This document shows positions 7,464-50,775 of a stretch of DNA of 50,953 bases, piece after piece (position 1 is the first letter of the stretch; the number at the start of each line of letters is the position of its first letter). This DNA comes from Candidatus Uhrbacteria bacterium (GTDB lineage: Bacteria; Patescibacteriota; Patescibacteriia; UBA9934). A program made the translations under genes and the position numbers. The notes beneath the pieces were generated by a model. It was not told the origin of the DNA. It saw nothing but the letters and a program-made list of their open reading frames with translations, and did no database searches. The DNA is taken from NCBI GenBank assembly GCA_943354605.1, contig CALRCK010000006.1, forward strand, positions 1 through 50,953, read 5' to 3'.

Positions 7464-7513
7464 TCACGTCATCCCTCTCGCGTCATTTCGGTCATTCCCG
7501 TAACCTCACTTCA

Positions 7514-7581: not shown

Positions 7582-7605
7582 CAGAGGGGACTCGAATATA
7601 TTTCT

Positions 7606-8520
7606 ATGCTCACCGCCATCTTCACTATCATCGGTCTCGCGGCCTTCGAGGTCGTCTCCAGTATTGATAATGCCGTCATTAACGCCGAAGTGTTGCAAAC
7701 CATGAGCCCCAAGGGCCGAAAATGGTTCTTGCTCTGGGGCATGCTCTTCGCCGTGTTCATCGTCCGTGGATTGCTCCCATGGCTGATTGTGTGGGGCGTA
7801 GTGCCAAGCCTTGGCCCGGTCGGAGCTCTGCTCTCGACGATGAGCGGCGATCCTCTCGTGCATCTCGCCGTGGAATCCGCAGCGCCAGTCCTCTTTGCCG
7901 GCGGCGGAACATTCTTGCTGTTCCTGTTCTTCCACTGGCTGTTCCTTGAAGAAAAACACTTTGGCCTTCCGCACGAAAAATTCTTTTCGCGCCAAGGCCT
8001 GTGGTTCTACGCCGTAGTCTCCATTCTCCTCGCCGCGATTGTCTGGTTCTCCATCGACATCGCCCCAATGATGGCCTTCGGCGCCGTTGTGGGATCGACC
8101 GCGTTCTTTATTACGCATGGATTCAAAGACAACGCAGAGAAGGCGGAACAAGAACTCCTCTCCGGCAACAAAGATCGCAGCGACATCAGTAAAATTCTCT
8201 ATCTGGAAGCCATCGACACCACATTCTCCATCGACGGCGTCCTCGGCGCCTTCGCCTTCACCCTCTCCGTTCCCCTCATCCTCATCGGCAACGGCATCGG
8301 CGCCCTCGTCGTGCGCCAACTGACGGTGAGCAACGTGGAAACGATTAAGAAGTACATCTACCTGAAGAATGGCGCGATGTACTCGTTGCTGATCCTCGGC
8401 ATGATGATGCTGTTCGAAGCCTTCGGCGTTCACGTGCCACAGTGGGGCGCTCCACTGGCGACGGTACTCATCCTGATTGCGGCGGTGATGAAGTCGAGGA
8501 TGCATTTGAAGGCCATTTAG
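7606..8520 (+). CDS. TerC-like (DUF475-type) integral membrane protein
   Basis: FEVVSSIDNAVINAEVL and LYLEAIDTTFSIDGVLGAFAFT motifs; many TM helices. Confidence 0.82.
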   Translation: MLTAIFTIIGLAAFEVVSSIDNAVINAEVLQTMSPKGRKWFLLWGMLFAVFIVRGLLPWLIVWGVVPSLGPVGALLSTMSGDPLVHLAVESAAPVLFAGGGTFLLFLFFHWLFLEEKHFGLPHEKFFSRQGLWFYAVVSILLAAIVWFSIDIAPMMAFGAVVGSTAFFITHGFKDNAEKAEQELLSGNKDRSDISKILYLEAIDTTFSIDGVLGAFAFTLSVPLILIGNGIGALVVRQLTVSNVETIKKYIYLKNGAMYSLLILGMMMLFEAFGVHVPQWGAPLATVLILIAAVMKSRMHLKAI

Positions 8521-8540
8521 AGGCCCACAAAATCAATACT

Positions 8541-10496: not shown

Positions 10497-10638
10497 CAAC
10501 GCGCCTCCCATTCGGTTTTTTCCGCCTGGGGTTTGAATGATTTAAAAGTTTCATAATTTTGAGCCCAGAGACAAGTGCCAATCTTGTGTGGGGCGTTCAT
10601 TTAGAAAAAAATGTGGATAAACGAATTGTGGAATTGTC

Positions 10639-10670
10639 GTCATAGGTTGATAATTAAATCAACCTATGAC
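10639..10670. promoter_or_regulatory. Putative autoregulatory operator of the HTH-methyltransferase
   Basis: 13-bp perfect inverted repeat GTCATAGGTTGAT-N6-ATCAACCTATGAC overlapping a GATAAT -10-like hexamer and the ATG at 10666. Confidence 0.65.
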
Positions 10671-12054: not shown

Positions 12055-12901
12055 TTTTTTTGAAAAAGTCCTCTACGTCTCCCATGTTTTGAATCCAAAA
12101 GATTTCGTCAACAGCTTTTACGGATTTCGCGAAAACATTCGTGATCGATGAGATTGCTGCAGTCTTCATGACTTCGTAATCGGGCTTAGTTGGCTTTTTA
12201 TTAGTTAGCGCAAAATATCCGATTGAAGTATTGGTGTCCCAGTATCTAGTTTGCAAATGGGCTGTTATTGCTTTGATGACGTTTCCTTCGTGCACGAATT
12301 GGTATCTCCGATCGGGTCGTACCGAAGTCTTTGCGGAGACAGCAAAGGCAATTGCGCCGAAGGGGCACTCGCCGATAAATAGCTTATGTAAGTTTTCCAG
12401 AAATTCTGCGGTTTCCGTATCGAACTTCGTGATCGGTGGATGATTTATTATTTCTTCAGAGATTATTCGATTAATCTTGGAGAGATCAACGCAAAGAAAA
12501 TCCGGATTGGACATCTTTAATTCGATTCCTTGGGCCAAGAGATGTTTTTCAAGTTCGCCGATGCGGGAACGAACATCTTCGGAGAAGAAGTCGATGTAGT
12601 TAACCGAGAGAACGTTGGGTATCGTAAAAACACAGAAGCGCTTTGACTCTCGTGCTAGATTGAAAAACTTCGCCGCAAGAAGCATCTCGAACCATTCGCC
12701 TCTTGCGTTATTGAAGGCATTCTGGTCAACCTTTACTTTTGCTTTTGTTGCCTCTTCTTTTATTTTTGCTTCAATCTTCTCCAGCGCCAGTTTTATATCT
12801 ATTTCTTCCGGTACGTTTGGGAAAACTGCAGAGATCGCCCTTATGCGCTTGATCTGTATTCGGCCGTCGTCATCTACGTCTATCGTTTGGAATTCTTGCA
12901 T
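12041..12901 (-). CDS. Type II restriction endonuclease, Cfr10I/Bse634I-like (CCGG-core family)
   Basis: NARGEWFE, SNPD and KTSVRPDRRYQFVHEG match the PD...K-T-x-RPDR..Q...E signature; convergent on the MTase, 14-bp overlap. Confidence 0.85.
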   Translation of the reverse strand: MQEFQTIDVDDDGRIQIKRIRAISAVFPNVPEEIDIKLALEKIEAKIKEEATKAKVKVDQNAFNNARGEWFEMLLAAKFFNLARESKRFCVFTIPNVLSVNYIDFFSEDVRSRIGELEKHLLAQGIELKMSNPDFLCVDLSKINRIISEEIINHPPITKFDTETAEFLENLHKLFIGECPFGAIAFAVSAKTSVRPDRRYQFVHEGNVIKAITAHLQTRYWDTNTSIGYFALTNKKPTKPDYEVMKTAAISSITNVFAKSVKAVDEIFWIQNMGDVEDFFKKTTSS

Positions 12902-12963
12902 ATGTTGTTTGATGAGAGCTTAACCCATTTAGACTAGAAGGTCGATGGTTAACTCGAGTAAGT

Positions 12964-13902
12964 TTATAGATCCCACCCACACCCCCTCCCAAAATGCCCC
13001 CACATCGCAGTCTCCGCATAGGTCACTTCATCGAGCCTTAGGAGCTCGCGAATCCCGCGGGGTGTCAGATCGTATCCGGTGATCGGGATTTCTTTTCCAT
13101 CCACAATCGCAATCGCCATTACAGGCTCCGGTACGCCAATGGCGTAGGCGAGTTTGACGAAGGCTTCTTTGGCGCCAGCGGAAATAAAGTCGACGGCGAT
13201 TTTGCGGGCCATGTAGGCGCCACTGCGATCTACTTTGGTGTAATCCTTTCCGGAGAAGGATCCGCCGCCGATGGGGATTTCGGGGCCGTAGTTGTCGACG
13301 ATGAGTTTGCGGCCGGAGAGTCCGGTGTCGGCGTCGAATCCGCCCTGATTCCATTCGCCGGCGGGGTTGATGTAATAGTTTTTGGAAGTGATGATGGATT
13401 GTACGAGGGCGGTGAGGGCTTCGGTTGGTGCGTGCTGAAAGCTGGCGACGACTGCGGAAACTTTTCCGTCGATGAGGGTTACTTGGGTTTTGCCGTCGAA
13501 GGGATAAACCTTATAAATCTCTTGGCAGAGATTCCGGGCGAGCTCGTATTCCAGTGGCGTCATGGATTGTGTTTCCGCTGTTGCATAGCCTTTCATGATT
13601 CCTTGATCACCTGCGCCACCAATATCAACGCCGCGCGCAATTTCTGGGCTTTGCGCAACGATGTTGATTTGCACGGTGTAGTCGTCGCCAACGATCGATT
13701 TCACGATCTTTTCGAGATCTGGCTTTCCAAGACTCGTCACTTCGCCGTTGATGGTGATGAGTTTATGGCCGCCCATCACTTCGATTGCGGTGCGGCTGTT
13801 TTTATCTATCGCGAGATACGCATCCAAGAGGGAATCGGCGATGAAGTCGCAAATCTTGTCTGGGTGCTTTGGGCTGACGCACTCTGCGGTTTTGATGGAC
13901 AT
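12964..13902 (-). CDS. metK: S-adenosylmethionine synthetase (short form)
   Basis: ECVSPKHPDKICD, GAGDQG, DGKTQV, DTGLSGRKLIVDNYG, GGGSFSGKD.TKVDRSGAY. Confidence 0.95.
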   Translation of the reverse strand: MSIKTAECVSPKHPDKICDFIADSLLDAYLAIDKNSRTAIEVMGGHKLITINGEVTSLGKPDLEKIVKSIVGDDYTVQINIVAQSPEIARGVDIGGAGDQGIMKGYATAETQSMTPLEYELARNLCQEIYKVYPFDGKTQVTLIDGKVSAVVASFQHAPTEALTALVQSIITSKNYYINPAGEWNQGGFDADTGLSGRKLIVDNYGPEIPIGGGSFSGKDYTKVDRSGAYMARKIAVDFISAGAKEAFVKLAYAIGVPEPVMAIAIVDGKEIPITGYDLTPRGIRELLRLDEVTYAETAMWGHFGRGCGWDL

Positions 13903-13943
13903 AAAGAAAAATCTTTCCCCGATGAAAGAGAAAGACATTTGTA

Positions 13944-14041
13944 ATTATCTTTCCCCTCACGGGGTTGGAATTGGCACCTTCTTAGAATAAGGGTTGCCGG
14001 TGGGTCGTAGAGCCAAAACTCTCGCCACGCTCGTGATATGG
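13944..14041 (-). ncRNA. SAM-I (S-box) riboswitch aptamer
   Basis: Minus strand: AUAUCACGAG-CGUGG-CGAGAG-UUUUGG-CUCU-ACGA-CCCAC-CGGCAACC-(P3)-GGUGCCAAUUCC-CCCC/GUGA/GGGG-AAAGAUAA; kink-turn GA pairs, UUGG:CCAA pseudoknot; directly 5' of metK. Confidence 0.9.
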
Positions 14042-14101
14042 ATTGTGTTCAAAGGATAGCAGAGAATACGCGAAGCACAACGTGTACTGTGAATGTAAAA
14101 C

Positions 14102-14130
14102 AAAAGCCCACGAGAAATCGTGGGCTTTGT
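14102..14130 (-). terminator. Intrinsic terminator (probably bidirectional)
   Basis: AAAGCCCACGA-GAAA-TCGTGGGCTTT just past the stop of 14133..14315. Confidence 0.8.
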
Positions 14131-14132
14131 GA

Positions 14133-14315
14133 CTACGTGGTTTGAAGTTTTTCGCTTCGTTTCACGAGTTCTTGTTGATTTTTGTTCGCCATCTTTGCCG
14201 CCTTTGTGAAGAGTTTCATTTTTTCTTTGTCCGAGGCGTGACGAAGGAAATAGGAGAGCCCGTCGGTCCCTGGGGTCTTTTTCTTTTGTATTCTCAGGAA
14301 TTCTAGGATTTTCAT
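14133..14315 (-). CDS. Small basic protein coupled to the zeta-like gene; candidate antitoxin/partner
   Basis: 60 aa; ATGA overlap with the upstream gene; followed by a terminator. Confidence 0.65.
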   Translation of the reverse strand: MKILEFLRIQKKKTPGTDGLSYFLRHASDKEKMKLFTKAAKMANKNQQELVKRSEKLQTT

Positions 14316-15019
14316 ATGAGTTTCATCAGTGTTTCTTCAGTATACTTATCGGGAAGGAGCTCGTCTAATCCGGGGCCGTTTGCCAAGAGATATTGAAGGG
14401 ATTCCACTGCATTTGTCTTAAAATCCTTTTTCACGAGGATTATTTTCACGTCATCAGGGAATTCTTTGCGAATTCGCATAATCGTTTCTCGTGCGCCGAG
14501 AAATTGTCGAATAAATGCTTCTTTAGGAATATTTCTCCCCTCAACAATTTCTCTCGCCACAGTAAAGTTCCAGGCGACAACAGGATCCTGATAAATATAG
14601 AGGATCAGAATCTTTCGATGGTGACGGAGTGATCGTTCGATATTGTCGCGGGCCTTTTCGTAGTTCGCAAATGTCCCGTCGATAATTGCAGTCTGACGAT
14701 TCTTTAATACGTTATCGTATAGCCGTTCAACGATAAGTGATACCGCTCTTTGGACCTCCGAGGAATTGCTTCCTGTATAGCCCTTAATCTTTGGGCGAAG
14801 TTCGTCGCTGTCGATTCGAATAGGAATGGTTTCATACGTTTCCGCGATCAACGCAAGAACACTTTTTGAAAATTCCGTTTTCCCCGCACCTGGAGACCCG
14901 GCCATGAAAACGGTTTCCGGCGATGCACTCGGTGGATAGATATTTTTATCGGTGAGTTCACGAGCGATCTTGGTTCTATTTGTCTTGGCGTACTGGATTG
15001 CTTCATCTTCTAGGTTCAT
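14312..15019 (-). CDS. Zeta-toxin-family P-loop kinase
   Basis: FMAGSPGAGKTE, IDSDELR, IIDGTF, RE..EGRNIP; TGT-TATGAT -10 box 8 nt upstream. Confidence 0.82.
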   Translation of the reverse strand: MNLEDEAIQYAKTNRTKIARELTDKNIYPPSASPETVFMAGSPGAGKTEFSKSVLALIAETYETIPIRIDSDELRPKIKGYTGSNSSEVQRAVSLIVERLYDNVLKNRQTAIIDGTFANYEKARDNIERSLRHHRKILILYIYQDPVVAWNFTVAREIVEGRNIPKEAFIRQFLGARETIMRIRKEFPDDVKIILVKKDFKTNAVESLQYLLANGPGLDELLPDKYTEETLMKLI

Positions 15020-15046
15020 ACTGAGATATCATAACATCGTCTTTTT

Positions 15047-15781
15047 ATGCCCCCACGAGTCCGCAACCTCTACGACCCAAAGTCAAAAGCACCGTACAAA
15101 GTCTCGCGTTCGAAGATCGAGCTCTTTGTCGATTGCCCGAGATGCTTTTACATTGATCGTCGACTAGGCGTTGGTCGGCCGTCTGGTCCGCCGTTCAATA
15201 TCAACAAGACCGTCGATTTGTTGCTGAAGAAGGAATTCGATGTGCATCGGGCGGCGGGGACGGCGCATCCGCTTATGAGGGAATATGGATTAGATGCGAT
15301 TCCGTTTGCGCATGAGGAGATGGATGCGTGGAGGGAGAATTTTGTGGGGTGCCAGGTGGTGGATGAGCCGAGTAATTTTTTGGTGACCGGCGCCGTCGAT
15401 GATTTGTGGGTGAATCCGGCGGGGGAGATTATCGTGGTGGATTATAAGGCGACAAGTAAAAGTACGGAGGTGAATTTGGATGCGGAGTGGCAAAAGAGTT
15501 ATAAGCGGCAGATGGAAATTTATCAGTGGATTTTGCGGAGGATGGGATTTGTCGTCTCAAATACCGGGTATTTTGTGTACTGCAACGGCCGGCAAGACGT
15601 GGCAGCGTTTGATGGCAAGATTGAGTTTGACGTGAAGATTCTTCCGTACACAGGCGACGATGCGTGGATTCCCGGTGTGCTGATGCAGATGCGAAAATGC
15701 TTGCGCGCGAGCAAGGCGCCGAAGGCTGCGGTGGATTGTGAGTACTGCGCGTATATTGCCGGCGTACAGTCTGTTCAATAA
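15047..15781 (+). CDS. PD-(D/E)XK RecB/Cas4-like nuclease
   Basis: N-terminal CPRC, GAVDD...VDYK, QMEIY, C-terminal CEYC. Confidence 0.85.
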   Translation: MPPRVRNLYDPKSKAPYKVSRSKIELFVDCPRCFYIDRRLGVGRPSGPPFNINKTVDLLLKKEFDVHRAAGTAHPLMREYGLDAIPFAHEEMDAWRENFVGCQVVDEPSNFLVTGAVDDLWVNPAGEIIVVDYKATSKSTEVNLDAEWQKSYKRQMEIYQWILRRMGFVVSNTGYFVYCNGRQDVAAFDGKIEFDVKILPYTGDDAWIPGVLMQMRKCLRASKAPKAAVDCEYCAYIAGVQSVQ

Positions 15782-15789
15782 TTTCGTTT

Positions 15790-16353
15790 CTGACGAACGC
15801 TGCACCCATCCCCTACACCCTCCGCCGAAAGCGCTTTTCGCGGGTGCTGAGGTTTGCGGTGCATGCGGATGGGCGATTAGTTGTGACCGCGCCAGTTTTC
15901 ATCGGGAAACGAATGATCGAGAAGATGATTACGGAAAAGAGGGAATGGATTTTGGAGAAGTTAGAGGTTGCGCGTAGAGACGGCGCGCTGCGCCGTCTCG
16001 AATCGGCGCCGAAGAGGACGAAGAAACAGGTCGCCGAGGATAAGAATCGCGCACTGGAAATCATCCGATCGCGCATTGCGCATTTCAATCTTGTCTACCG
16101 ATTATCGTGGAAGCGCATTGCGATTCGGAATCAACGGACGCGATGGGGGAGTTGTTCGAAGCGGGGGAATTTGAATTTCAATTATAAGATTGCGTTGTTG
16201 CCGCCGTACCTTGCCGATTACATCATCGTTCACGAGCTGTGCCACTTGGCGCAGATGAATCATTCAAAGAAGTTTTGGGACCTTGTGGCACAGACGATTC
16301 CGGATTGGAAGGAGCGGAGGAAAGAGATTCGGACATACGAAGTCGGGAATTGA
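15790..16353 (+). CDS. YgjP/DUF45-like zinc metallohydrolase (M48/SprT-like)
   Basis: RWGSCS, DYIIVHELCHL..MNHS..FW; the family-typical N-terminus (YTLRRKR...) lies upstream of GTG 15844, so the start is uncertain (CTG 15790?). Confidence 0.85.
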   Translation: MTNAAPIPYTLRRKRFSRVLRFAVHADGRLVVTAPVFIGKRMIEKMITEKREWILEKLEVARRDGALRRLESAPKRTKKQVAEDKNRALEIIRSRIAHFNLVYRLSWKRIAIRNQRTRWGSCSKRGNLNFNYKIALLPPYLADYIIVHELCHLAQMNHSKKFWDLVAQTIPDWKERRKEIRTYEVGN

Positions 16354-16378
16354 CACTAATAACGTCACGCGTTATTAT
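16350..16378 (+). promoter_or_regulatory. sigma70 promoter and operator of higBA
   Basis: TTGACA-17 nt-TATTAT with palindrome TAATAACG-N5-CGTTATTA (16357-16377) overlapping it. Confidence 0.85.
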
Positions 16379-16405
16379 TTGGGCATGCCGTAAGTTCTGC
16401 CGTGT

Positions 16406-16684
16406 ATGATTCAAAGTTTCGGAGATGGAGAAACGGAGAAGCTCTTCCATGGAATTCAGGTGAAGCGATTTGAAGTGTTTGAACGGATCGCTCGCCGGAA
16501 GCTTGAAATGGTGAATGCTTCAGTATCGATATCAGATTTGAAAGTGCCGCCAGGAAATCGACTAGAACGGCTGAAGGGAAGCCGATCGAAATATTACAGC
16601 ATACGGGTCAACGATCAGTGGAGGATTTGTTTCATCTGGAAGGACGGCGGAGCATACGAGGTCGAGATTGAGGATTATCACTAA
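16406..16684 (+). CDS. higB: HigB toxin (RelE/ParE superfamily)
   Basis: MIQSF...DLKVPPGNRLERLKG...YSIRVNDQWRICF.W....A.EVEIEDYH. Confidence 0.95.
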   Translation: MIQSFGDGETEKLFHGIQVKRFEVFERIARRKLEMVNASVSISDLKVPPGNRLERLKGSRSKYYSIRVNDQWRICFIWKDGGAYEVEIEDYH

Positions 16685-16694
16685 CACAATACAT

Positions 16695-16994
16695 ATGGCC
16701 ATGACAAACATTCACCCTGGCGAGATTCTCGACGAAGAGTTCCTCAAGCCGCTCGCGATTACTGAGTATCGGCTTGCGAAGGATATTGGTGTTCCGGCGC
16801 GACGCATTAACGAAATCGTTCATGGTGATCGGTCAATCTCGGCTGACACTGCGCTTCGGTTTTCCGCGTATTTTGGAACATCGGCGGAGTTCTGGTTGAA
16901 TCTTCAGTCGCGATACGATCTGCTTGTTGAGCAAAAGACTTCCGGAAAGCGCATCGAAAAGGAGGTTAAGCGTTACGATCTCGTTGCCGCATAG
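16695..16994 (+). CDS. higA: HigA antitoxin
   Basis: HPGEIL.EEFL.PL...RINEIV.G.RSISADTALR...FGTS.EFWLNLQ. Confidence 0.95.
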   Translation: MAMTNIHPGEILDEEFLKPLAITEYRLAKDIGVPARRINEIVHGDRSISADTALRFSAYFGTSAEFWLNLQSRYDLLVEQKTSGKRIEKEVKRYDLVAA

Positions 16995-16998
16995 TACT

Positions 16999-17244
16999 GT
17001 GTCAACATGGTTCGTATACATGCTCCGTTGCGGTGATGGGAGTCTCTATACGGGGATCGCGATTGATGTTGCAAAGAGAGTTGCGCTGCACAACGCCGGA
17101 AAAGGAGCGAAGTACACCAGGGCGAGATTGCCGGTGGCACTGGTGTGGAGTGCGGAGATGAAGAGTGCGACTGATGCGCGAAAGGCGGAAGTCGATCTGA
17201 AGCGATTGTCGAAGAAAGAAAAGGAGGAGTTGATCGCTTCGTAA
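16999..17244 (+). CDS. Small GIY-YIG nuclease (UPF0213/YhbQ-like)
   Basis: WFVYMLRCGDGSLYTGI...R...HN.GKGAKYTR.R.PV.LV; GTG start inferred. Confidence 0.9.
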   Translation: MSTWFVYMLRCGDGSLYTGIAIDVAKRVALHNAGKGAKYTRARLPVALVWSAEMKSATDARKAEVDLKRLSKKEKEELIAS

Positions 17245-17250
17245 ACGCGT

Positions 17251-17288
17251 CACGGCCCGGAGCTCCACGTGAGGAGTTCCGGGCCGTG
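17251..17288. terminator. Strong hairpin between convergent genes
   Basis: CACGGCCCGGAGCTCC-ACGTGA-GGAGTTCCGGGCCGTG (16-bp stem). Confidence 0.7.
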
Positions 17289-17316
17289 CGTATTCGGGGC
17301 GGTGCGAAGTTCTGGA

Positions 17317-17868
17317 CTACGCGGCCCGGCGCAACGCGATGTTGAAGAGCGCGGAGTAGTCCCGTTCGTGCATCACCCCAAGCCCAGCCCAGCGGAGGCT
17401 GACGGTGTGATGCTCGAATTGGCCCATCGCGCATCCGGCGCAGACCACGGTGCTCGCATTGTCCTTGGTGGTGGTAGCCAGGTGGCGCCACCGCTCGTGG
17501 CTCGCCGCCTGCGCCAGGGCGCTGGGGACAATCTCCACCGATGCGCCCGGAGCGATGCTGCATCCGCAGGTGATGCAGACAACACTGTGCTGCAGCTCGT
17601 CCTTCCGACGACACACGTCGCACCGGTGGATGCTGCGGCCGGTGAGGAAGCCGAGGAGGCCCAGGGGGCGTGCGCGGTGCGTGTTGCGGCCGGATTCCAT
17701 CATGGCCATGCTGTCGTGGATCATTGGCCCGCTCGGGCCGGCCAGCAGCGTGTGCCGCGTGGCGATGTCGTGGCCGCAGCGGCCGCGGGCCGTGCGAGCG
17801 ATGACGCTGTTTTTGATCTGCAGCGCCAGGCCAGGGGGTCGGGTGCAGATGAGGAGATGCAGGATCAC
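17317..17868 (-). CDS. Orphan Cys/His-rich, putative zinc-binding protein
   Basis: 183 aa with CDVC, CITC, CAGC; GGAG SD before GTG; near-consensus promoter upstream and hairpin downstream. Confidence 0.6.
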   Translation of the reverse strand: MILHLLICTRPPGLALQIKNSVIARTARGRCGHDIATRHTLLAGPSGPMIHDSMAMMESGRNTHRARPLGLLGFLTGRSIHRCDVCRRKDELQHSVVCITCGCSIAPGASVEIVPSALAQAASHERWRHLATTTKDNASTVVCAGCAMGQFEHHTVSLRWAGLGVMHERDYSALFNIALRRAA

Positions 17869-17912
17869 GGAAGCTCCGGGTCGAGAGTGTTTGGACGGTG
17901 GTGTCCGGCGCA

Positions 17913-17942
17913 GATATTAGCGAAATTCCGCAATTTCGTCAA
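17913..17942 (-). promoter_or_regulatory. sigma70 promoter with a palindromic spacer
   Basis: Minus strand TTGACG-17 nt-TAATAT; spacer contains CGAAATT-N4-AATTTCG (17921-17938). Confidence 0.7.
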
Positions 17943-17987
17943 CGATTCAATGGTGTGTTACGATCGTTGGGCACCGAAGGAGGTTGC

Positions 17988-18542
17988 ATGGATCTTTTTC
18001 CTGAGTGGGTGACGGTGGCAGACGTGGAACGCCGGTTCCTGGCCGATTGGCGGTGGTGGGCAACGCGGATCGGCATGGCCGCCTTTGGCGGGATGTTCGT
18101 GTTCTGCGCGGGATTTTTCGTGAACGAAGGTGTGTCGTCTGCTCTCGTCTCCGCGGCCTTCTCAACGCTGTTCCTGATTACGCTGATCTTCCGGAGGGAT
18201 TACCTCTTCTTCGGATGCACGTACAAGATTGGGGGTCGTTTCGACCTTGGGGAAGGGATGCAGTACTGGGTTGAACAGGAGGGCAAGCGGCCTGCGCACG
18301 AAGGATCGGTGGTTGTGCTTGTTCGTGTGGGGGGAATCTTCCGTCCGCGGCGATCCATCACGGTGAGTGATGGAAGCGACAAGGACGGCCCGTTCGGCCG
18401 GGGCATCGACTACGATGACGACGGCTTCGTGGTGTCGCGTCGGCGGTCTGGAACGGGACGCGCCAAGCACATCGAAGGATTGATGCGTATCCTGATCGAA
18501 GATACGCGGCCGCTACGCCGTGGTCCGTCGGCGATGACGTGA
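17988..18542 (+). CDS. Orphan membrane protein (2 TM helices plus soluble domain)
   Basis: AAGGAGG SD before ATG 17988; two hydrophobic helices. Confidence 0.6.
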   Translation: MDLFPEWVTVADVERRFLADWRWWATRIGMAAFGGMFVFCAGFFVNEGVSSALVSAAFSTLFLITLIFRRDYLFFGCTYKIGGRFDLGEGMQYWVEQEGKRPAHEGSVVVLVRVGGIFRPRRSITVSDGSDKDGPFGRGIDYDDDGFVVSRRRSGTGRAKHIEGLMRILIEDTRPLRRGPSAMT

Positions 18543-18658
18543 CCGATGACAACACGAGGGCGCTGGGGAACGAAATCCCTGGCGCCTTGTGGTTTGTGGA
18601 AAGAATTGTTGCGCGCCTGACAACGTGAGGTATTCTCAAGAAGTCACAGGGAGACATC

Positions 18659-19063
18659 ATGCCAAGCCCAAATGACGGAACGTGGCTTCACGTTATCCTC
18701 GTCAAGGTTCCCTTGGCGAGTGTAAAACTGCTTCAAGAGCAAGCGCGCAAGCCAGCGGAAGATCGTGTGGCTGTGAAAACCCGGACTATTTCGGCTCCGC
18801 GATTCAGCGGCCGCGACGTGAACGGCGCCTTCGGGGTACATCGGTTGTCGGTGCAACCACACGCGGATGCGGTAAATCTCAACTGGGTGCAGCCCATGCC
18901 ATACGGCAGGGGCCATGCCCGAACAAGTTCGGCGTTCGTGGGGAGGTGCACCATCCTCGAGTTCGGCGAATATCTCGTGCTCGCACAAGCGTTCAGGAGT
19001 GAAGTCGAAGCGCGGGCGTGGGCGGAGGAACGCCACCAGCTGCTGCTTCCGAGGGCAGCATGA
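18659..19063 (+). CDS. Orphan hypothetical protein
   Basis: GGGAG SD before the ATG; 134 aa; followed by a hairpin terminator. Confidence 0.55.
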   Translation: MPSPNDGTWLHVILVKVPLASVKLLQEQARKPAEDRVAVKTRTISAPRFSGRDVNGAFGVHRLSVQPHADAVNLNWVQPMPYGRGHARTSSAFVGRCTILEFGEYLVLAQAFRSEVEARAWAEERHQLLLPRAA

Positions 19064-19118
19064 AACGCAACGCGTGTCCGGGAACCTCGAACGGAGGCTT
19101 CCGGACACGGCGCGTTTT
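19063..19118 (+). terminator. Intrinsic terminator
   Basis: CGTGTCCGGGAACCTC-GAACG-GAGGCTTCCGGACACG then GCGCGTTTT. Confidence 0.7.
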
Positions 19119-19133
19119 GGGGAACAGCCTGAA

Positions 19134-19485
19134 CTGAGCCTTTGAGGGGTTGTGGCGGGAAGGGGGAGGTGAGCATTGGATGGAATGAGAGCGGCGGCGA
19201 TGGCATCGGCGAGAGTGTGGGTACTCGATTTCAAAACAGATGTTTTGCTAACGCAACTGAGTTGCATTTAGGAAACACTCCTTTTGTGTGGCGGATCCGA
19301 ATGGGACCTATACGACCAATAGGACCGATGTTGAAGCGTTATGGGAAAGCTTCTTCACTTTTCATCGATTTCCGGCTCAGATCGCGTTTTGTTGCCCAGT
19401 TCTAAAACCCCAAAATTCGAAGGTATCATTTTCTGTCGCAGTACCCCATGCTCCCAGGTTTCGTCCCACCTCTTCCAAGGCTCAG
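19134..19485 (+). repeat. Dispersed ~340-bp non-coding element, copy A (MITE-like or structured RNA)
   Basis: Termini CTGAGCCTTTGA...TCCAAGGCTCAG; conserved blocks shared with 33296-33630 (inverted) and 46532-46860. Confidence 0.85.
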
Positions 19486-19530
19486 GCCAGTTTCACGCCC
19501 GGCCCGATTTCCGCTACACTTCCATGCGCT

Positions 19531-21663
19531 ATGAAAGATTTTTTTCTCTCCCAGCAGCAGCCGTCGCCAAATCTTCATATTGACTATCAATCGGAGCTAA
19601 ACGACGAGCAATATCGGGTGGTTTCTGGTGGCGGTGGGCCGATGTTGGTGCTGGCCGGAGCAGGAAGCGGGAAGACGAGAACGATCACGTATCGCGTGGC
19701 ATGGTTACTCGAGCATGGCACGCCGGTGGAGAACATGTTGTTGCTCACGTTTACGAATAAAGCGGCGAAAGAAATGATGACGCGTGTTGAGGGATTGCTC
19801 CGCGCGTATCCAACCGGACTGTGGAGCGGAACCTTTCACTCCATTGCGAACCGCATGTTGCGGATGTACGGCGCGTACACCGGATTTGGAAGCGATTTTT
19901 CGATTTTGGACGAGGAGGATGCGAACGACTTGATGAAGATGTGCATCAAGGAGCTGAAGATCGACACGAAGGGACGACGATTTCCGAGCGTTGGGGTGTT
20001 GCGCGGATTGTTGTCCTATGCGAACAACGCACGTCGATCGTTGCAGTCGGTGCTGAACGATCGCGCAGAACACTTTGTAGGGATTCTTCACGAGGTGACT
20101 GCAGTTGCGGAGCGATACGCGTCGGCAAAGCGCATGGCGAAGGCGATGGATTTTGACGACCTCCTTCTTGAACTTTTGAAATTACTGCAGGAGAACGAGT
20201 CCGTTCGCGCGCAGCTTGCACATCGATTTCAGTTTATTCTCGTGGACGAGTTCCAGGATACAAATATTATTCAGTCCGACATCGTCGATTTGTTGTCGTC
20301 GGGTCACCGAAATCTGTTGGTGGTTGGGGACGACGCGCAGAGCATTTATTCCTTTCGTGCCGCAGAAATTCGGAACATCCTTGATTTTCAGAAACGGTAT
20401 TCGGACGCGCAGTCGTACCGACTCGTGATGAACTATCGCTCGACGCCAGAGATTCTCGCGGTGGCGAATGCCGTCATCGCAAACAACAGCGAGCAGTTCG
20501 CGAAGGAATTGGTATCGGCAAAGACTTCTGGCGAAAAGCCGAACATTGTTCCAGCGAATGATGCGCGGGAAGAGGCACAGTATGTCGTTGAACAGCTTTT
20601 GAAGCTGATCGACGAAGGAATCGAGCTCCAAGGAATCGCGGTGTTGTTTCGTGCAGCATTCCATTCGCAAGCGCTCGAATTTGAATTGATGAAGCGGGGG
20701 ATTGCATACGAATACCGCGGCGGCATGAAGTTTTTTGAGCGTGCGCATATTAAGGACGCTGTTGCGCACCTTCGATTGCTTCGCAACGGTCACGACCTTG
20801 TGGCCTGGGCTCGTGCGCTCCAAATTCAGCCAGGGCTTGGGATTACCACCAGCCAGAAGATTGCGGAAACCATGAGCCAGTACGATTCCGCCCGCGATGC
20901 CCTTGAAGCGCCAATGAAACTTTCTCCTCGCGCACAGTTAGGCTTTGCGGGAACGCGATCGATTCTTCGGATGATGCTTGCGGCACCACTGCCATCGGAA
21001 GCCGTGCGCGCGTTTGCGAATCATGAATCGTATCGGTTGTATCTTGAAGCAGAATATCCGAACGCTCGTGAGCGTGTTGAAGACTTGGATCAGCTTGCCG
21101 TGTTCGCAGAACAGTATCGCGATCTTGGTGCATTCTTGGACGCGATGACATTGGCTGGTGATTTTAGCGGAAGAATTGATGACGCCGATTCTGGTCAGCG
21201 TGAAGAAGGCGATCGAAACACATTAATCTTATCGACCATTCATCAGGCGAAAGGATTAGAATGGGACGCGGTGTTTGTACTGCATTGCGCACAAGGCATG
21301 TTCCCAAGCGACCGAAGCATGGGGCAATCGCGGGAAATTGAGGAAGAGCGACGACTGTTTTACGTTGCGGCAACACGTGCACGATCGAAACTGTACTTCA
21401 CCTACCCGCTGACGACGGGATACGAATCGGTGGAGCTTCGTCAGCAATCGATGTTCCTCGACGAGATTCCGTTCGGTATGGCGGAAACGGTTCGCCTCCG
21501 TCGTGCAATGCCAGCGTGGAGCATGTCATCGTCGTACAGCTCACCAACCGTCTCGCGTCACCACCAATCCGACGAGTTCGAAGAACCCACAATCGTTCTC
21601 GACGACATGGGGGAGAAAATGGTAAAAAAGAGTGCACCCGGATCGTTTCTTGGGGATCATTAA
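19531..21663 (+). CDS. pcrA: UvrD/PcrA SF1 DNA helicase
   Basis: LAGAGSGKT, TFTNKAA, VDEFQDTN, VGDDAQSIY.FR, NYRS, STIHQAKGLEW, EERRLFYVA.TRA. Confidence 0.93.
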   Translation: MKDFFLSQQQPSPNLHIDYQSELNDEQYRVVSGGGGPMLVLAGAGSGKTRTITYRVAWLLEHGTPVENMLLLTFTNKAAKEMMTRVEGLLRAYPTGLWSGTFHSIANRMLRMYGAYTGFGSDFSILDEEDANDLMKMCIKELKIDTKGRRFPSVGVLRGLLSYANNARRSLQSVLNDRAEHFVGILHEVTAVAERYASAKRMAKAMDFDDLLLELLKLLQENESVRAQLAHRFQFILVDEFQDTNIIQSDIVDLLSSGHRNLLVVGDDAQSIYSFRAAEIRNILDFQKRYSDAQSYRLVMNYRSTPEILAVANAVIANNSEQFAKELVSAKTSGEKPNIVPANDAREEAQYVVEQLLKLIDEGIELQGIAVLFRAAFHSQALEFELMKRGIAYEYRGGMKFFERAHIKDAVAHLRLLRNGHDLVAWARALQIQPGLGITTSQKIAETMSQYDSARDALEAPMKLSPRAQLGFAGTRSILRMMLAAPLPSEAVRAFANHESYRLYLEAEYPNARERVEDLDQLAVFAEQYRDLGAFLDAMTLAGDFSGRIDDADSGQREEGDRNTLILSTIHQAKGLEWDAVFVLHCAQGMFPSDRSMGQSREIEEERRLFYVAATRARSKLYFTYPLTTGYESVELRQQSMFLDEIPFGMAETVRLRRAMPAWSMSSSYSSPTVSRHHQSDEFEEPTIVLDDMGEKMVKKSAPGSFLGDH

Positions 21664-38886: not shown

Positions 38887-39267
38887 ATGACTGACGAAGA
38901 AAAAAATCAGCTTGGTGCCGTCCTCGAAATCGTGCAATCCATGCAAAAAATCATGGCCACGAAGGACGATCTGAAGAGCTTCGCCACGAAGGACGATCTG
39001 AAGAGCTTCGCCACGAAGGACGATCTGAAGAGCTTCGCCACGAAGGACGATGTCGCTGCTATTCTTGAGGATATTGAGTTTATTAAGGATTCAATGGCGA
39101 CTAAGGAGGATCTTGCTGCTGTAAAATCTGAACTCATTACGCATATCGATGGTTTTGCGCAGCAGAATCAGAAATTTGACCATGAACTTGTTGCTGCACG
39201 GTCGCAATGCAACCGTATTGAGGAACGCGTGGAGGTTTTAGAATTGAAGGCGGGAATCGGGGCGTAA
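38887..39267 (+). CDS. Small coiled-coil protein with ATKDDLKSF repeats
   Basis: 126 aa; 9-aa tandem repeats; heptad pattern. Confidence 0.7.
   Translation: MTDEEKNQLGAVLEIVQSMQKIMATKDDLKSFATKDDLKSFATKDDLKSFATKDDVAAILEDIEFIKDSMATKEDLAAVKSELITHIDGFAQQNQKFDHELVAARSQCNRIEERVEVLELKAGIGA
38956..39051 (+). repeat. Perfect 27-bp tandem repeat (3 units plus 15 bp)
   Basis: GCCACGAAGGACGATCTGAAGAGCTTC x3 plus GCCACGAAGGACGAT. Confidence 0.95.
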
Positions 39268-46531: not shown

Positions 46532-46860
46532 CTGAACCTTTGAGGGTTGTGACGGGAGTTCGGAAGGGTCTTGCGAGAGCGGGGGTACTTGATTTCAAAC
46601 AAGGTGTTTTGCAAACGCAACCGAGTTGCGTCTTGAAAACGCTGACTGATTTTGGTGATCTGCGTGGTTGGCGATACCGCCGCTCACGATCATCGATCGC
46701 GCATTTGCGAAATTGATTTCATTCTTTCCCTCAATTCTCAGCTCAGATCGCATTATTGCCACATTTTAAAACCCCAAAATTCGAGGGTACCGTTTTCTGT
46801 CGCAATACCCCATACTCCCCGGCCGCATGCCTTCTCGTCCTCATTCTTTCAAAGGTTCAG
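46532..46860 (+). repeat. Dispersed ~340-bp non-coding element, copy C
   Basis: Perfect 12-bp terminal inverted repeat CTGAACCTTTGA/TCAAAGGTTCAG; blocks shared with copies A and B. Confidence 0.85.
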
Positions 46861-46902
46861 ACGAATTCACTTTTCCCCCATTTTCACATACACTTCTTTC
46901 AT

Positions 46903-48195
46903 ATGAAGCCCATTGTTATCCGCGTACTCCGATATCTCGCCAAGCGGCAAATTGCCAAGTTTCAGCCAATGGTGATTGCGGTCACGGGGAGTGTGGGTAA
47001 GACGAGTACCAAAAATGCTATTGCGATTGCGCTGAGTTCGACGCTCGACGTACGAACGGCGAATAAGAATTACAACAACGAATTTGGCGTGCCACTCGCC
47101 ATCATGGGAGAGATGAGTCCGGGGAAAAATGTGTGGGAATGGGTGAAGCTGTTTGCGCGTCAGTACAGCGTGAAGACGTTTCCAACACATCTTGTGCTCG
47201 AATATGGTGCCGATCGCTCTGGCGATATTCAGGCGTCGTGCGACATTGCTCGACCAGATGTTGCGGTGATCACTGCAATTTCTCCAGTACACGCATCGAA
47301 TTACAAAAACTTTGGCGCGCTTGCGGACGAGAAAGCCACACTCGGCGATAATGTAAAAGAAGACGGATTGGTCATTTTGAACGCAGACGATCAGACGGTG
47401 AATCTCATGCGCGATCGCTTTGCTGCGACAACGGCAACGTATGGAAAGTCTGGCCGACAAGCGAACATCAAAGATATTTACGTGAAGACGGTACTCGACG
47501 ATCATTACGCGCCAAACGATGTCGCGGTGCTGACGAAGGCCGCGATTGAAATTGACGGCGAAACCGTGGATCTCAAACTGCCGAATTGTTTGGGCGATAC
47601 GCCGGTGTTTGCGTGTGCCGCGGCACTGCTCGTAGCAAAACATTGTGATGTTCCGCTCAAGAAGGCCGCGAAAGCATTGAATGAATCATTTGCGCCAGCG
47701 CCAGGAAGGCTTCGACCAATCGCCGGAGTCAAAGGATCGTTAATCCTCGACGACACGTACAACGCGGCTCCAGCATCCACCATCGCTGCGCTCGACGCTC
47801 TTGCGTTGTTTACTGCCGATCGCCCGGGAAGCAGGCGCATCGCCGCTCTCGGAAAAATGGCAGAGCTCGGACAATATTCTGAAGCCGAGCACGCCGCTGT
47901 TGGTCGTAGAGTTTCCGAGGTTGCCGATATCTTTGTTGCTGCGGGAAACGAAATGCAGGGCGCGGCAGACGAAGCTGAACGCATGGGGATGAAGTCGTCA
48001 GCAGTCGTTCGTGTGCACGACGCCGTGGAAGCTGGCCGATGGCTTGATACAAACGTGAAGGAAGGCGACATCGTTCTTGTGAAGGGCTCGCAAAGCGCGC
48101 GCATGGAAAAGGCGGCGAAAGACATTATCGCCGAACCGTTGCGCGCAAAAGAATTGCTTGTTCGACAGGAAGTATATTGGTTGAAGAATGGATAG
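46903..48195 (+). CDS. murF: UDP-N-acetylmuramoyl-tripeptide--D-Ala-D-Ala ligase
   Basis: AVTGSVGKTSTK, NNEFGVP, DDTYNA.P, G.M.ELG, LVKGS. Confidence 0.92.
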   Translation: MKPIVIRVLRYLAKRQIAKFQPMVIAVTGSVGKTSTKNAIAIALSSTLDVRTANKNYNNEFGVPLAIMGEMSPGKNVWEWVKLFARQYSVKTFPTHLVLEYGADRSGDIQASCDIARPDVAVITAISPVHASNYKNFGALADEKATLGDNVKEDGLVILNADDQTVNLMRDRFAATTATYGKSGRQANIKDIYVKTVLDDHYAPNDVAVLTKAAIEIDGETVDLKLPNCLGDTPVFACAAALLVAKHCDVPLKKAAKALNESFAPAPGRLRPIAGVKGSLILDDTYNAAPASTIAALDALALFTADRPGSRRIAALGKMAELGQYSEAEHAAVGRRVSEVADIFVAAGNEMQGAADEAERMGMKSSAVVRVHDAVEAGRWLDTNVKEGDIVLVKGSQSARMEKAAKDIIAEPLRAKELLVRQEVYWLKNG

Positions 48196-48228
48196 TATCT
48201 GGATCATAAAGGCTCCATAATGATGCTG

Positions 48229-48256
48229 CATGTAAGTAGCGATCGCGACTTTTATG
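48229..48256. repeat. Degenerate copy of the PaaX-flanking palindrome, ending in the start ATG
   Basis: CATGTAAGTAGCGATCGCGACTTTTATG; 25/28 identical to 48774-48801. Confidence 0.85.
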
Positions 48257-48771
48257 CCTCGTTCTCTCAAACTCCATTCAAAATCGAGTAATCTTTTTCA
48301 GGAGATAGCCGAAAGTTGCGACCTTCTTTTTTCGGTTGGGAATAATCCTTCAGGTTTTTGCGATATGGAGTTGATGGAATGAATCGTATTCGTAAAGCAA
48401 AAGAACACCGATACGAAAAACAGATTTTACAAAGACTCGTGAAAAAGAAACTGATTGTTATTCAAGAAGCTGGAGAAACGTTGCGCGCAGCTTTAACCCA
48501 AACGGGGGAAAATGAATTATTTCGTTTACAGATCATTCATGCACCGCGGTGTCTGGATGGTCAGATCTGTATGGTCGTTTTTGACATTCCAGAATCAAAA
48601 AAACAGTTGCGGAAAAATTTGAGAGATTTTCTGAGGTATGCGAGTTTTACGCCACTCCAAAAAAGTGTTTGGATTTCCGCGCGCGATGCAACGACGCCTC
48701 TTTCAAGGCTCTTTGCTTCGAAAAAATTATCGCGTTGGATTTCTGTCTTTCGTGCAGAGAAAATTAACTGA
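48254..48771 (+). pseudogene. PaaX-like protein (wHTH + Cas2-like domain), split by a 1-nt frameshift near 48347-48357
   Basis: Frame from ATG 48254 reads MPRSLKLHSK...NNP; the -1 frame continues FRFLRYG...LT..G...VVFDIPE..K.LR..LR.FL....F.PLQKSVW. Confidence 0.72.
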
Positions 48772-48806
48772 AACATAAAAGTCGCGATCGCGACTTTTAT
48801 GTTTCA
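48769..48806. repeat. Perfect 38-bp palindrome beginning at the stop codon
   Basis: TGAAACATAAAAGTCGCGA|TCGCGACTTTTATGTTTCA, no loop. Confidence 0.92.
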
Positions 48807-48815
48807 TCCTTGATA

Positions 48816-50639
48816 TCAATCCACCGTCACCGCCTTTGCTAAGTTGCGAGGGCGGTCGGGGTTGATGCCTTTTAGGACGGCAAGTTCGTACGCAAGGATT
48901 TGCATCGGGATGTTCGCCACAAGGCCAGTGAGGACGCCGTTTTTTGGAACAATAATGGTTTCCGTCGCGACACGCTCGGCAAGCTTCGGATTGTCCGTAA
49001 TGATGATGGTTCGCGCGCCGCGAGCTCGCACTTCCTCGGCCGCTGTTCGCATTAGCTGACCGTGCTGGTCGTCGAAGATGCAAAGAATGACCGGTGTATT
49101 CTCGACGATGAGCGCAAACGGTCCGTGTTTCAGTGCGCCGCCAGCGTAGCCCTCGGCATGGAGATACGTAATCTCCTTAATTTTCAGCGCACCTTCGCGA
49201 GCAATACTTTCGCACGCTCCTTTGCCGAGAACGAAGCAATGTTCAGCGTCGACGAGCGTCTTTGCGATTTCTTTACACGCCTCGCGGGTGTTCAATGCGA
49301 TTTTGACGAGCGTTGGCAGGCGACGAAGTTCGTCGATGAGATGCTTACGGCGTTCAACCTCCGTTCCCCGATGCATACTAAACCACGCGGCAATCATTTC
49401 GAGCGCAACGACCTGTGTGCTGAATGCTTTTGTGGAAGCAACTGCATGTTCGCGACCAGCGTTCAGGTACACGCCGCATTTCGTCGATCGCGCAATGAGG
49501 GAACCAACCGCGTTCACCACAGAAAATGTTGGCACGCCGCGGTCTTGAGCAATGACGAGCGCACGATGCGTGTCTTTTGTTTCGCCAGATTGCGAAATGA
49601 CGAGAAGTCCGGCGCCATGCGGAGCGAAATGGTGTTCGGTAATCTCCGACGCATCAACCACCTGAACCGTGTCGAATGCCTTGAGGGCACGCATACCCAG
49701 TGCACCGTACATTCCAGCATGCAGCGATGTTCCACATGCGGCGATGACAAGGTGCTTAATACCGAGAAGAGTTTCTTTGTTCCGTTCAAGTCCGCCGAGT
49801 TTGATCTCGAGATCCGTTGGAATGCGTGCGCCATGATTCAGTGTTCGTGCCAACGCATCCGGTTGCTCCATGATTTCTTTAATCGTCCAATGATCAAATG
49901 GCGCCGGGGAGAGCTCAATGACTTCCTCGGGTGCAAGCTCTACGCGCGATGTGTCGAGTGTGGTTCCTTCTGGAGTGATGAGTGCGAACTCGCCGTTTTG
50001 TAATGCAATAAATTCGCGAGTGTGGTTATTGAACGCCGAAGGTTCGCTGGCCACGTACATCGTGCCTCGACCAACGCCAACCACAAGCGGACTGCCATTG
50101 CGTGCCGCGAGAATGGTGTTTGGCATGATGGGGGAGACGACCGCAACGCCCCACGTGCCTTCCAGTTTTGCGAGTGCGTGTTTCATGGCAACGTCGAGCG
50201 CCTCACCATCGTCCAGGTATTTACCGATGAGCTGCGCAATAACTTCCGTGTCGGTTTGGGATTTAAAGACGATGCCCGCGGCCTCGAGGCTTGCTTTCAG
50301 CGCATGAGAGTTCTCGATAACACCGTTATGGACAAGCGCGAGGCGGTTCTTCATGTCCGAATGCGGATGAGCGTTGGCATCCGTTTTTCCACCGTGCGTT
50401 GCCCAGCGGGTGTGGCCAATGCCGGATCGGTTTCCGACGTGCTCGGGCAGATGTTCTCTGAGCCGAGCAATGGCGTTTGCTGTTGCGCCGCTCGCAAACT
50501 TTGTCGTCACAATCTCGCCGGCGTCAGAAACCGTGGCAACGCCAGCGGAATCGTATCCACGACTTTCCAAGATCGAAAGCCCGTCAATAATTGTACTGAC
50601 GCTATCGGTATCACCAACAACCCCGATGATTCCACACAT
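48816..50639 (-). CDS. glmS: Glutamine--fructose-6-phosphate aminotransferase
   Basis: MCGII, RGYDSAG, GHTRWATHG, HNGVIEN, SQSGET, VASTKAF, PRNLAKAVTVD. Confidence 0.97.
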   Translation of the reverse strand: MCGIIGVVGDTDSVSTIIDGLSILESRGYDSAGVATVSDAGEIVTTKFASGATANAIARLREHLPEHVGNRSGIGHTRWATHGGKTDANAHPHSDMKNRLALVHNGVIENSHALKASLEAAGIVFKSQTDTEVIAQLIGKYLDDGEALDVAMKHALAKLEGTWGVAVVSPIMPNTILAARNGSPLVVGVGRGTMYVASEPSAFNNHTREFIALQNGEFALITPEGTTLDTSRVELAPEEVIELSPAPFDHWTIKEIMEQPDALARTLNHGARIPTDLEIKLGGLERNKETLLGIKHLVIAACGTSLHAGMYGALGMRALKAFDTVQVVDASEITEHHFAPHGAGLLVISQSGETKDTHRALVIAQDRGVPTFSVVNAVGSLIARSTKCGVYLNAGREHAVASTKAFSTQVVALEMIAAWFSMHRGTEVERRKHLIDELRRLPTLVKIALNTREACKEIAKTLVDAEHCFVLGKGACESIAREGALKIKEITYLHAEGYAGGALKHGPFALIVENTPVILCIFDDQHGQLMRTAAEEVRARGARTIIITDNPKLAERVATETIIVPKNGVLTGLVANIPMQILAYELAVLKGINPDRPRNLAKAVTVD

Positions 50640-50775
50640 ATTCTTGTATTTAGTAGAGAACGACCATCTGACAATATCTCTGCCGAACATACCGAGCAAG
50701 TATGTCTGAGGATAAGTTGACAGACATTTCAACCCTTAGGGTTGAGCAACGCTAAGGGTTGCAAGGGAACGTTCG

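Follow-up and report, generated by a model that had tools for sequence, protein, structure and literature searches.

Short mobile units with similar hairpins at both ends are known from the IS200/IS605 family and from PATE derivatives, small, hairpin-bearing, non-autonomous relatives. RAYT genes, the partners of repetitive extragenic palindromes (REPs), are described in PMC3337134 as genes of ~500 bp that are flanked by REPINs, with one REPIN type for each gene, and that are single-copy and mutually divergent, their REPINs keeping the hairpin. Here we describe a comparable locus in a 50,953-nt stretch of Candidatus Uhrbacteria DNA (GenBank assembly GCA_943354605.1, contig CALRCK010000006.1, positions 1 to 50,953 of the forward strand; hereafter the window), in which a gene with a PaaX/Cas2-like product lies between two copies of a long palindrome at 48229-48806. 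Its relatives point to a module that appears to be widespread in the candidate phyla radiation (CPR)/Patescibacteria, a gene for a protein of ~175 amino acids with a copy of a long, perfect palindrome, particular to the lineage, set tightly at each end. We consider it probable, by a modest degree, that this is a pairing of the REP/RAYT kind in which a Cas2-fold protein takes the place of the HUH transposase, and that the window's own copy is a decayed member. Full-text literature searches, which lay outside subscription journals and supplements, returned no account of such a layout.

The downstream palindrome of the window (48769-48806, unstranded) is 38 bp long, loopless and perfect (100% complementary), with GCGATCGC at its centre, and it opens with the gene's TGA stop codon (48769-48771). 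The upstream copy (48229-48256, unstranded) is degenerate, being 84% self-complementary; it agrees with the downstream core (48774-48801) in 25 of 28 positions and closes with the ATG start codon (48254-48256). The pair is as the first-pass annotation, made from the sequence alone, had described it. A 22-nt palindrome core with up to three mismatches occurred at 2 sites in the window (100 shuffles gave an expectation of 0.01), and an 18-nt core with up to two mismatches occurred at just the two flanking sites in the whole genome of origin (G000; 938,277 bases, 11 contigs, 98.9% complete), with 0 sites for the reversed-pattern control. Folded as single-stranded DNA, the downstream palindrome reached -17.5 kcal/mol (z -9.0), and the upstream copy gave a weak fold of -4.8 kcal/mol (z -0.6). 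In a terminator scan, the downstream palindrome took the form of a bidirectional intrinsic terminator, with an A-run, a GC stem and a T-run (17 pairs). An Rfam match of the hairpin to ohsC fell below threshold (36.1 versus 50 bits) and was treated as chance. The central sequence GCGATCGC itself was found at 8 sites in the window against 2.8 expected, a count reached by 0 of 100 shuffles; two of the eight are the palindrome centres, and the sites include 29597, 29742, 37489, 42545, 46069 and 47411.

A search of 61 related genomes placed the protein in 32 genomes (G000 counted), with up to 8-9 matches per genome; among same-genus genomes, 2 of 13 carried the gene. From the relatives, 79 loci with one homologue open reading frame (ORF) each were taken and scanned for palindromes of at least 11 net pairs with at most two mismatches and a loop of at most 8 nt, those with a loop of at most 2 being termed loopless. 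Loopless palindromes stood at the stop codon in 32 loci, at the start in 16 and at both in 6, so that 42 of the 79 loci had at least one; they numbered 48 in 20.2 kb of near zones versus 9 in 248.6 kb of flanks. As in the window, the palindrome began between -15 and +10 nt from the stop codon in 24 of the 32 cases. With 73 loci from named genomes added, 67 of 139 unique CPR loci had a palindrome at the start or stop, a density 41-fold above that of the flanks. The centres of the 76 loop-0 palindromes were CGATCG (52), CGGCCG (8), AAGCTT (7), CGTACG (4), CTATAG (2) and three others found once each. A cognate pair of palindromes for each homologue, which the first-pass annotation had proposed as a check, was borne out: 37 of the 42 loci with one strong palindrome carried a related, often degenerate copy at the opposite gene end (p ≤0.01 versus control windows). 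The likeness between the two gene ends was limited to the palindrome and did not continue as a direct or inverted repeat, and the palindrome sequence was particular to each locus. In most loci the upstream copy lay 1-60 nt before the start codon, and many family palindromes were without T-runs. A metagenome scan for close relatives of the window gene returned nothing above 50% identity. At one locus (L130, JAGGUF010000032.1), at least three CGATCG-centred palindrome copies are interleaved around the homologue with several members of a second hairpin family (TCCTCCCCCTCCC...GGGAGGGGGAGGA), possibly as an array.

The palindromes diverge together with the proteins. Protein pairs with at least 55% identity (n=28) had an arm similarity of 0.51; the value was 0.46 for pairs at 45-55% (n=27) and 0.32-0.33 for pairs of lower identity (n=1775), and the same trend was present among paralogues at different sites of one genome. 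Because arm similarity tracks protein identity across different sites, the palindrome belongs to the gene and not to the insertion site. This, together with a palindrome-free empty site (see below), rules out an insertion that merely duplicated a resident terminator. The palindromes also keep their symmetry: among 324 arm positions from 18 non-redundant two-palindrome loci, preselected for few mismatches and so lowered in the one-sided class, 268 had the same pair in both copies, 32 were compensatory, 20 were one-sided and 4 were broken in both copies. Since 32 positions differ on both arms with pairing intact in both copies, symmetry is kept even where the two copies of a locus differ. Arm mismatches showed no G.U bias (GT 11, AC 14), which, with a centre that is itself palindromic, speaks for symmetry at the DNA level or arm-to-arm copying rather than for a hairpin in the sense RNA. 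The sense-RNA hairpin model is not favoured on these same two grounds.

Cognate palindromes are also dispersed away from the genes. Cores of 22-28 nt with up to three mismatches (in G000, 18 nt with up to two) were searched in nine genomes, with a reversed-pattern control of 0 in all. The search returned 10 core sites in G051, 8 of them solo; 7 in G030 (5 solo); 6 each in G060 (4 solo) and G048 (5 solo); 3 in G038 (1 solo); 2 in G008, with 1 solo copy that is half degenerate; single sites in G016 and G036, neither with a solo copy; and in G000 the 2 sites that flank the gene. Solo intergenic copies were thus present in 5-6 of the nine genomes, at 1-8 each, and the variation among cognate copies was mostly symmetric. 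Three solo copies in G060 were the same over 42 bp, and those of G051 lay within a unit of ~90 nt, 76-90% alike, at no fewer than six places; at two sites in G051, palindromes cognate to two different paralogues stood side by side. Eighteen solo sites were taken, of which the 12 classifiable by gene orientation divided into 4 convergent, 4 divergent and 4 co-directional, a mix that fits neither pure terminators nor pure operators. The comparison with REP/RAYT gained weight because cognate palindromes were dispersed as solo copies in these other genomes.

The protein combines a region resembling a winged helix with a Cas2-like domain, as had been read from the translation in the first pass. The PaaX_M model (PF20803; 'central Cas2-like domain') matched the window ORF with an E-value of 1.5e-16 and 7 of 7 homologues scanned with E-values of 3e-15 to 3e-20. 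The Cas2 model PF09827 matched the window ORF under the cut-off (E 0.0014) and the homologues at 18.1-24.0 bits versus a cut-off of 23.8, with one of seven above it; the Cas2 model TIGR01573 gave 21.5-25.2 bits versus 24.5, with one of four proteins above. The PaaX equivalog TIGR02277, whose family is also defined by PF07848, PF20803 and PF08223, scored 17.9-28.6 bits in three of four proteins versus a cut-off of 264.55, with no match listed for the fourth, the intact homologue P0002. Pfam listed no PaaX_C domain (PF08223) in the seven homologues, which end with the Cas2-like domain, and showed solely PaaX_M and weak Cas2 in all seven, with no Y1 transposase fold (PF01797; HUH and Tyr); among defence-system models, none matched besides weak Cas2. 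The N-terminal region is labelled a winged helix from weak matches to DUF6293_C (E 0.002-0.06) and to AspA/ArsR/TubR (E 0.02-0.7) and from the helix-helix-hairpin layout of the structure model.

An AlphaFold2 model of P0002, built from 82 aligned sequences, had a predicted local distance difference test score (pLDDT) of 90.9. Its C-terminal domain aligned with the middle domain of E. coli PaaX (8a39) at Z 9.6 and a root-mean-square deviation of 2.1 over 72 residues, with Cas2 structures at Z 7-7.8 and with VapD at Z 6.3, and Foldseek concurred. The family profile matched Cas2 sequences at an E-value of ~1e-3 over the FDIPE...QKSVW motif. In the 82 sequences (P0002 numbering), D111 and S138 are invariant, with conservation of 90% or more at P113, E114, R120, R124 and W140. 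The motif hhhFDhP...Q+SVW aligns with the N-terminus of Cas2, and D111 aligns with the Asp of its FD, which binds metal; the PaaX-like protein Rv0674 has no Asp at this position. The mean share of the majority residue was lowest in the N-terminal helices (0.31), versus 0.50 in the Cas2-like domain. A homodimer prediction scored 0.38 against a mark of 0.42. The protein is not a true PaaX, because it scores 18-29 bits versus 264.55, has no C-terminal domain and has no adjoining paa genes, and the annotation 'PaaX-like' is almost certainly wrong as written. Nor is it a CRISPR Cas2, since the genome is without cas1. The family comprises 5,952 cluster representatives (50% identity) at E ≤0.001 and 4,315 at ≤1e-10; the best 150 representatives are 131-231 amino acids long, and the record titles of relatives name Candidatus Uhrbacteria (closest), other Patescibacteria groups, Saccharibacteria and a few other labels.

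The whole unit comes and goes between housekeeping genes. In G008, a genome of the same genus, a cassette lies between pgk and a DUF541 gene, and at the orthologous junction G000 has a spacer of 72 bp. Because this empty site holds no palindrome, what is gained or lost is the palindrome, the gene and the second palindrome together. In six same-genus murF-glmS junctions that were read (of 12 matches), the interval held a tsaC-like gene in three, other ORFs in two and no ORF in one, and none of the six contained a palindrome. A selfish or mobile cassette, as the first-pass annotation had proposed, is partly supported, by the cognate pairs and the likeness to RAYT; its prediction that empty murF-glmS sites would retain one palindrome failed in these junctions, and the empty site corresponding to the G008 cassette is palindrome-free as well. 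In G056 a cassette follows murF directly, and in G034 one adjoins glmS, making this neighbourhood either a recurrent target or an old residence. Across the family the neighbours are diverse housekeeping genes, and with a biggest neighbour cluster of 4 in 148 there is no recurrent partner gene. No transposase, recombinase, integrase or resolvase was found among the 76 of 148 neighbour proteins scanned in Pfam. Genes for Y1_Tnp (IS200/RAYT-type) occur elsewhere, with three in G000 (C3:145355-145645, C2:69219-69455 and C3:654-875), in 44 of 61 relatives and with 16 in G055; none was found in G060 (91% complete, with 6 copies of one palindrome), G050 or G041.

We propose a model in which the protein, with a predicted variable N-terminal winged helix and a conserved domain of Cas2 fold (PaaX_M) in which the metal-binding Asp of Cas2 is retained, would recognise its own palindrome, the variable head reading the arms. 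The Cas2-like core would act on or close to the conserved CG-NN-CG centre, its substrate probably being an extruded hairpin or cruciform, and this action would maintain or spread palindrome copies, the two gene-flanking copies marking the cognate 'master' locus. The start-proximal copy is probably also autoregulatory, and the stop-proximal copy may double as a terminator. A stronger form of the proposal, in which the Cas2-fold domain, aimed by the winged helix, nicks and copies perfect palindromes as a new class of element-handling nuclease in CPR bacteria that is neither HUH nor DDE, appears distinctly unlikely to us. If true, the repeat-insert-repeat unit, with palindromic repeats of ~36-40 bp around a Cas2 relative, would be a possible living analogue of the association between repeats and Cas2 on which the CRISPR adaptation module drew.

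Several observations weigh against a REP/RAYT-like role for a Cas2-fold protein. The protein has no HUH/Tyr transposase domain, and we know of no Cas2-fold protein that moves DNA on its own; that it binds, cuts and mobilises its palindrome is something we infer from the patterns above. The strict scan left 72 of 139 loci with no palindrome, the genome searches of G016, G036 and G000 found no solo copies, and the covariation counts carry the preselection already mentioned. The greatest identity between homologues within a genome was 64%, with no recent paralogue pairs and hence no sign of recent gene transposition. Cassettes recur beside murF or glmS in three families, which fits old vertical inheritance as well as a hot spot. 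The long hairpins of G000 also include a few that are loopless and centred on CGATCG with no such gene nearby, and many palindromes, that of the window among them, resemble bidirectional terminators.

The nearest solved structure is that of a repressor, PaaX, and with the PaaX_M family match it raises another explanation, an autoregulated PaaX-type repressor with a small regulon whose palindromes are operators at the promoter or start, for looping or a roadblock at the 3' end, and at solo targets. The upstream copy, 1-60 nt ahead of the start codon in most loci, is placed as an operator would be, and 8 of the 12 classified solo sites face a gene start. The remaining 4 of 12 lie between convergent genes, however, and contact by a dimer has no need of the 32 compensatory changes on both arms. 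The solo copies that are identical over 42 bp and the ~90-nt units look like duplication rather than independent operators, the family keeps a Cas2 Asp that is absent from the PaaX-like Rv0674, and up to 8-9 divergent copies in a ~1-Mb genome with a patchy distribution sit poorly with a regulator of this kind, which we regard as unlikely, though a serious contender. Plain terminators or insulators, isolating a small and possibly toxic gene and resembling each other through local duplication or gene conversion, would account for the A-run, GC stem and T-run of the downstream palindrome, which was called terminator-like, for the 131 long hairpins of the genome, mostly of that form, and for another similar hairpin pair around a 141-aa ORF (G000 C2:13303-13835). 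The centres are nearly always palindromic, with CGATCG in 52 of 76 loop-0 cases, and an RNA loop has no need of this; arm mismatches lack G.U bias (GT 11, AC 14), T-runs are absent from many palindromes, some solo copies separate divergent genes, palindrome type and protein diverge together across different sites, and the window's upstream copy makes a poor hairpin. The possibility raised in the first pass, that the downstream palindrome is only a bidirectional terminator, does not hold for the family, although the window copy does have terminator form, and we judge the explanation as a whole very improbable.

The cassette could instead be cargo, moved or maintained in trans, its palindromes serving as ends for another enzyme such as a Y1 (IS200/RAYT-type) transposase or an Xer-type recombinase of the host, with the Cas2-like protein a passenger such as a toxin or defence nuclease. 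Y1_Tnp genes are at hand in G000 (three) and in 44 of 61 relatives, IS200/IS605-type elements have similar hairpins at both ends according to PMC3337134, the whole unit is absent at the empty site, and 79 of 79 homologues are GC-poorer than their flanks. A single enzyme acting in trans leaves unexplained why the palindrome type follows the cassette's own protein, and in G060, where 6 copies of one palindrome stand in a 91% complete genome, as in G050 and G041, no Y1_Tnp was found; nor was a transposase or recombinase seen among the 76 of 148 neighbours scanned. We consider such cargo decidedly improbable. A cognate pairing of palindrome and Cas2-fold protein in the manner of REP/RAYT is the reading that we prefer.

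In the window itself the gene is broken. Its ATG frame encodes a 42-codon N-terminal fragment (48254-48382, + strand; MPRSLKLHS..., 78% identical to residues 1-36 of P0002) that ends at a premature TGA (48380-48382). The frame is lost at a T5 run (48355-48359, + strand), which intact homologues read through as ...NPxGYLRYG..., and the remainder of the gene continues in another frame (48358-48771, + strand; first ATG at 48379) with the end of the winged helix and the PaaX_M/Cas2-like domain (VVFDIPE...LQKSVW), 73% identical to residues 33-170 of P0002. Four intact homologues (171-176 amino acids, 68-74% identical) have the N-terminus MPRSL and are continuous over MPRSL...NPxGYLRYGxDGMNR; the first-pass annotation, in speaking of a 'repaired protein', was right that the gene is frameshifted. 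Identical sequence, with no indel at the T5 run, was present in contigs of two lake-water metagenome DNA runs from one study, of which one may be the assembly source and the other covers 48179-48598. Because contigs of both runs carry the same sequence, the frameshift is probably genuine rather than an error of assembly. No junction without the cassette was seen in the two runs, whose contigs break at the palindrome, and no RNA run was listed as containing the stretch. The window module is most likely inactive, a decayed member of the family, because its gene is frameshifted, its upstream copy is degenerate and solo copies are lacking.

To its left lies a Mur ligase gene of murF type (46756-48195, + strand; Pfam Mur_ligase_M and Mur_ligase_C), and to its right, convergent with it, glmS (48816-50732, - strand; Pfam GATase and SIS). 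The gene is more AT-rich than both, as first noted from the sequence, with 40.5% GC versus 53.1% in the Mur ligase gene, 55.0% in glmS and 51.7% in the window. Since all 79 homologue genes are GC-poorer than their own flanks, by a median of 8.1 points, AT-richness characterises the family and does not prove recent transfer. The window holds no CRISPR-type repeat array, and the gene's neighbours, Mur ligase and GlmS, are not paa genes (no genome-wide paa search was made), in agreement with the first-pass annotation. A Cas1 gene (PF01867) was likewise not found in G000 by a search whose control was positive in 7 of 14 genomes.

Other features of this neighbourhood and genome were recorded. The murF-glmS gap of G011 spans 3 kb and contains, ~800 bp ahead of the full glmS, a duplicated part of the glmS 3' end (C4:33696-33790; 83% identity with window 48820-48914), which points to insertions beside glmS. 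The tsaC/yrdC-like gene between murF and glmS encodes 198 amino acids and occurs in G001, G005 and G012 (L041, L037 and L043); a tblastn search of G000 gave no counterpart to the G001 protein, and G000 may lack TsaC. G000 contains 131 perfect hairpins whose arms measure 10 bp or more (up to 23) and whose loops do not exceed 6 nt, mostly consisting of an A-run, a GC stem, a loop and a T-run, which is an unusually long-stemmed style of bidirectional terminator. Two similar terminator-type hairpins with a CCCGCGA stem and 4-nt loops (C2:13303-13336 and C2:13802-13835) surround the 141-aa ORF mentioned above, which belongs to an unknown family and follows closely on an HU-like gene; a different gene thereby stands in a second hairpin-gene-hairpin unit. 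In the window, a ~12-kb stretch (7500-19600) with low GC at ~8.5-16.5 kb separates two segments that adjoin a PaaX_M cassette in the same-genus G004. Its products are an OLD-family ATPase/TOPRIM nuclease, an HTH-fused C5 DNA methylase together with a Cfr10I/Bse634I-type restriction enzyme, a SAM synthetase, a protein with a zeta-toxin domain, a PD-(D/E)XK nuclease and a YgjP-like peptidase, and the stretch has the look of a defence island in a variable position. At 38956-39051 lies a perfect 27-bp tandem repeat of 3.6 copies (100% matches).

If the preferred reading is true, the CPR/Patescibacteria, the least understood large bacterial branch with genomes of ~1 Mb, would own a Cas2-fold-based counterpart of REP/RAYT, and a function would be at hand for the common 'PaaX-like' annotation, in a family that can account for as many as 8-9 of the ~1,000 genes in a genome. 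It would also provide a natural set of specificity pairs between proteins and long palindromes and make Cas2-fold action on palindromic repeats outside CRISPR testable. For annotation, the palindromes explain contig breaks and mark a unit of gain and loss between housekeeping genes.

Among described proteins, the best structural match is PaaX, the E. coli phenylacetate repressor (8a39), which likewise begins with a winged helix and continues with a Cas2-like middle domain. The CPR proteins differ from PaaX in their length, 171-185 versus 305-316 amino acids, with no C-terminal domain, in keeping the Cas2-type Asp, in having no adjoining paa genes and in falling far under the TIGR02277 cut-off. 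With Cas2 and VapD they share the ferredoxin-like fold and the hhhFDhP...Q+SVW motif including the metal-binding Asp; unlike Cas2, the protein appears to be fused to a DNA-binding head, scores at or below the Cas2 model cut-offs, and belongs to a locus in which the repeats flank its own gene, with no cas1 in G000 and no array in the window. The unit resembles IS200/IS605 and PATE in being short with similar hairpins at both ends, but it carries neither TnpA nor TnpB, and its perfect palindromes have no strand asymmetry. Integron attC and hairpin-telomere (protelomerase) sites were considered as well; neither an integrase nor a resolvase turned up in the 76 neighbour proteins scanned, with no search aimed at them.

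The comparison with REP/RAYT is the closest. In both, a short gene of ~500 bp is flanked by its own palindromes, at both ends in 37 of 42 CPR loci with one strong palindrome, with one palindrome type per gene; the CPR genes too occur as several divergent single copies per genome, and in 5-6 of the nine CPR genomes searched extragenic copies are dispersed with hairpin symmetry kept and a possible second use as terminators. The differences are that the CPR protein is a winged helix with a Cas2 fold and has no HUH/Tyr Y1 domain, that its palindromes are perfect, loopless and 22-60 bp long with a CG-NN-CG or AAGCTT centre, whereas REPs are imperfect with a tagged head, that copies number 1-10 per ~1-Mb genome versus tens to hundreds of REPs, and that the hosts here are CPR bacteria. 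Because the defining HUH/Tyr transposase fold is absent, the CPR module is not a member of the REP/RAYT family; judged by its architecture, it appears to work like one.

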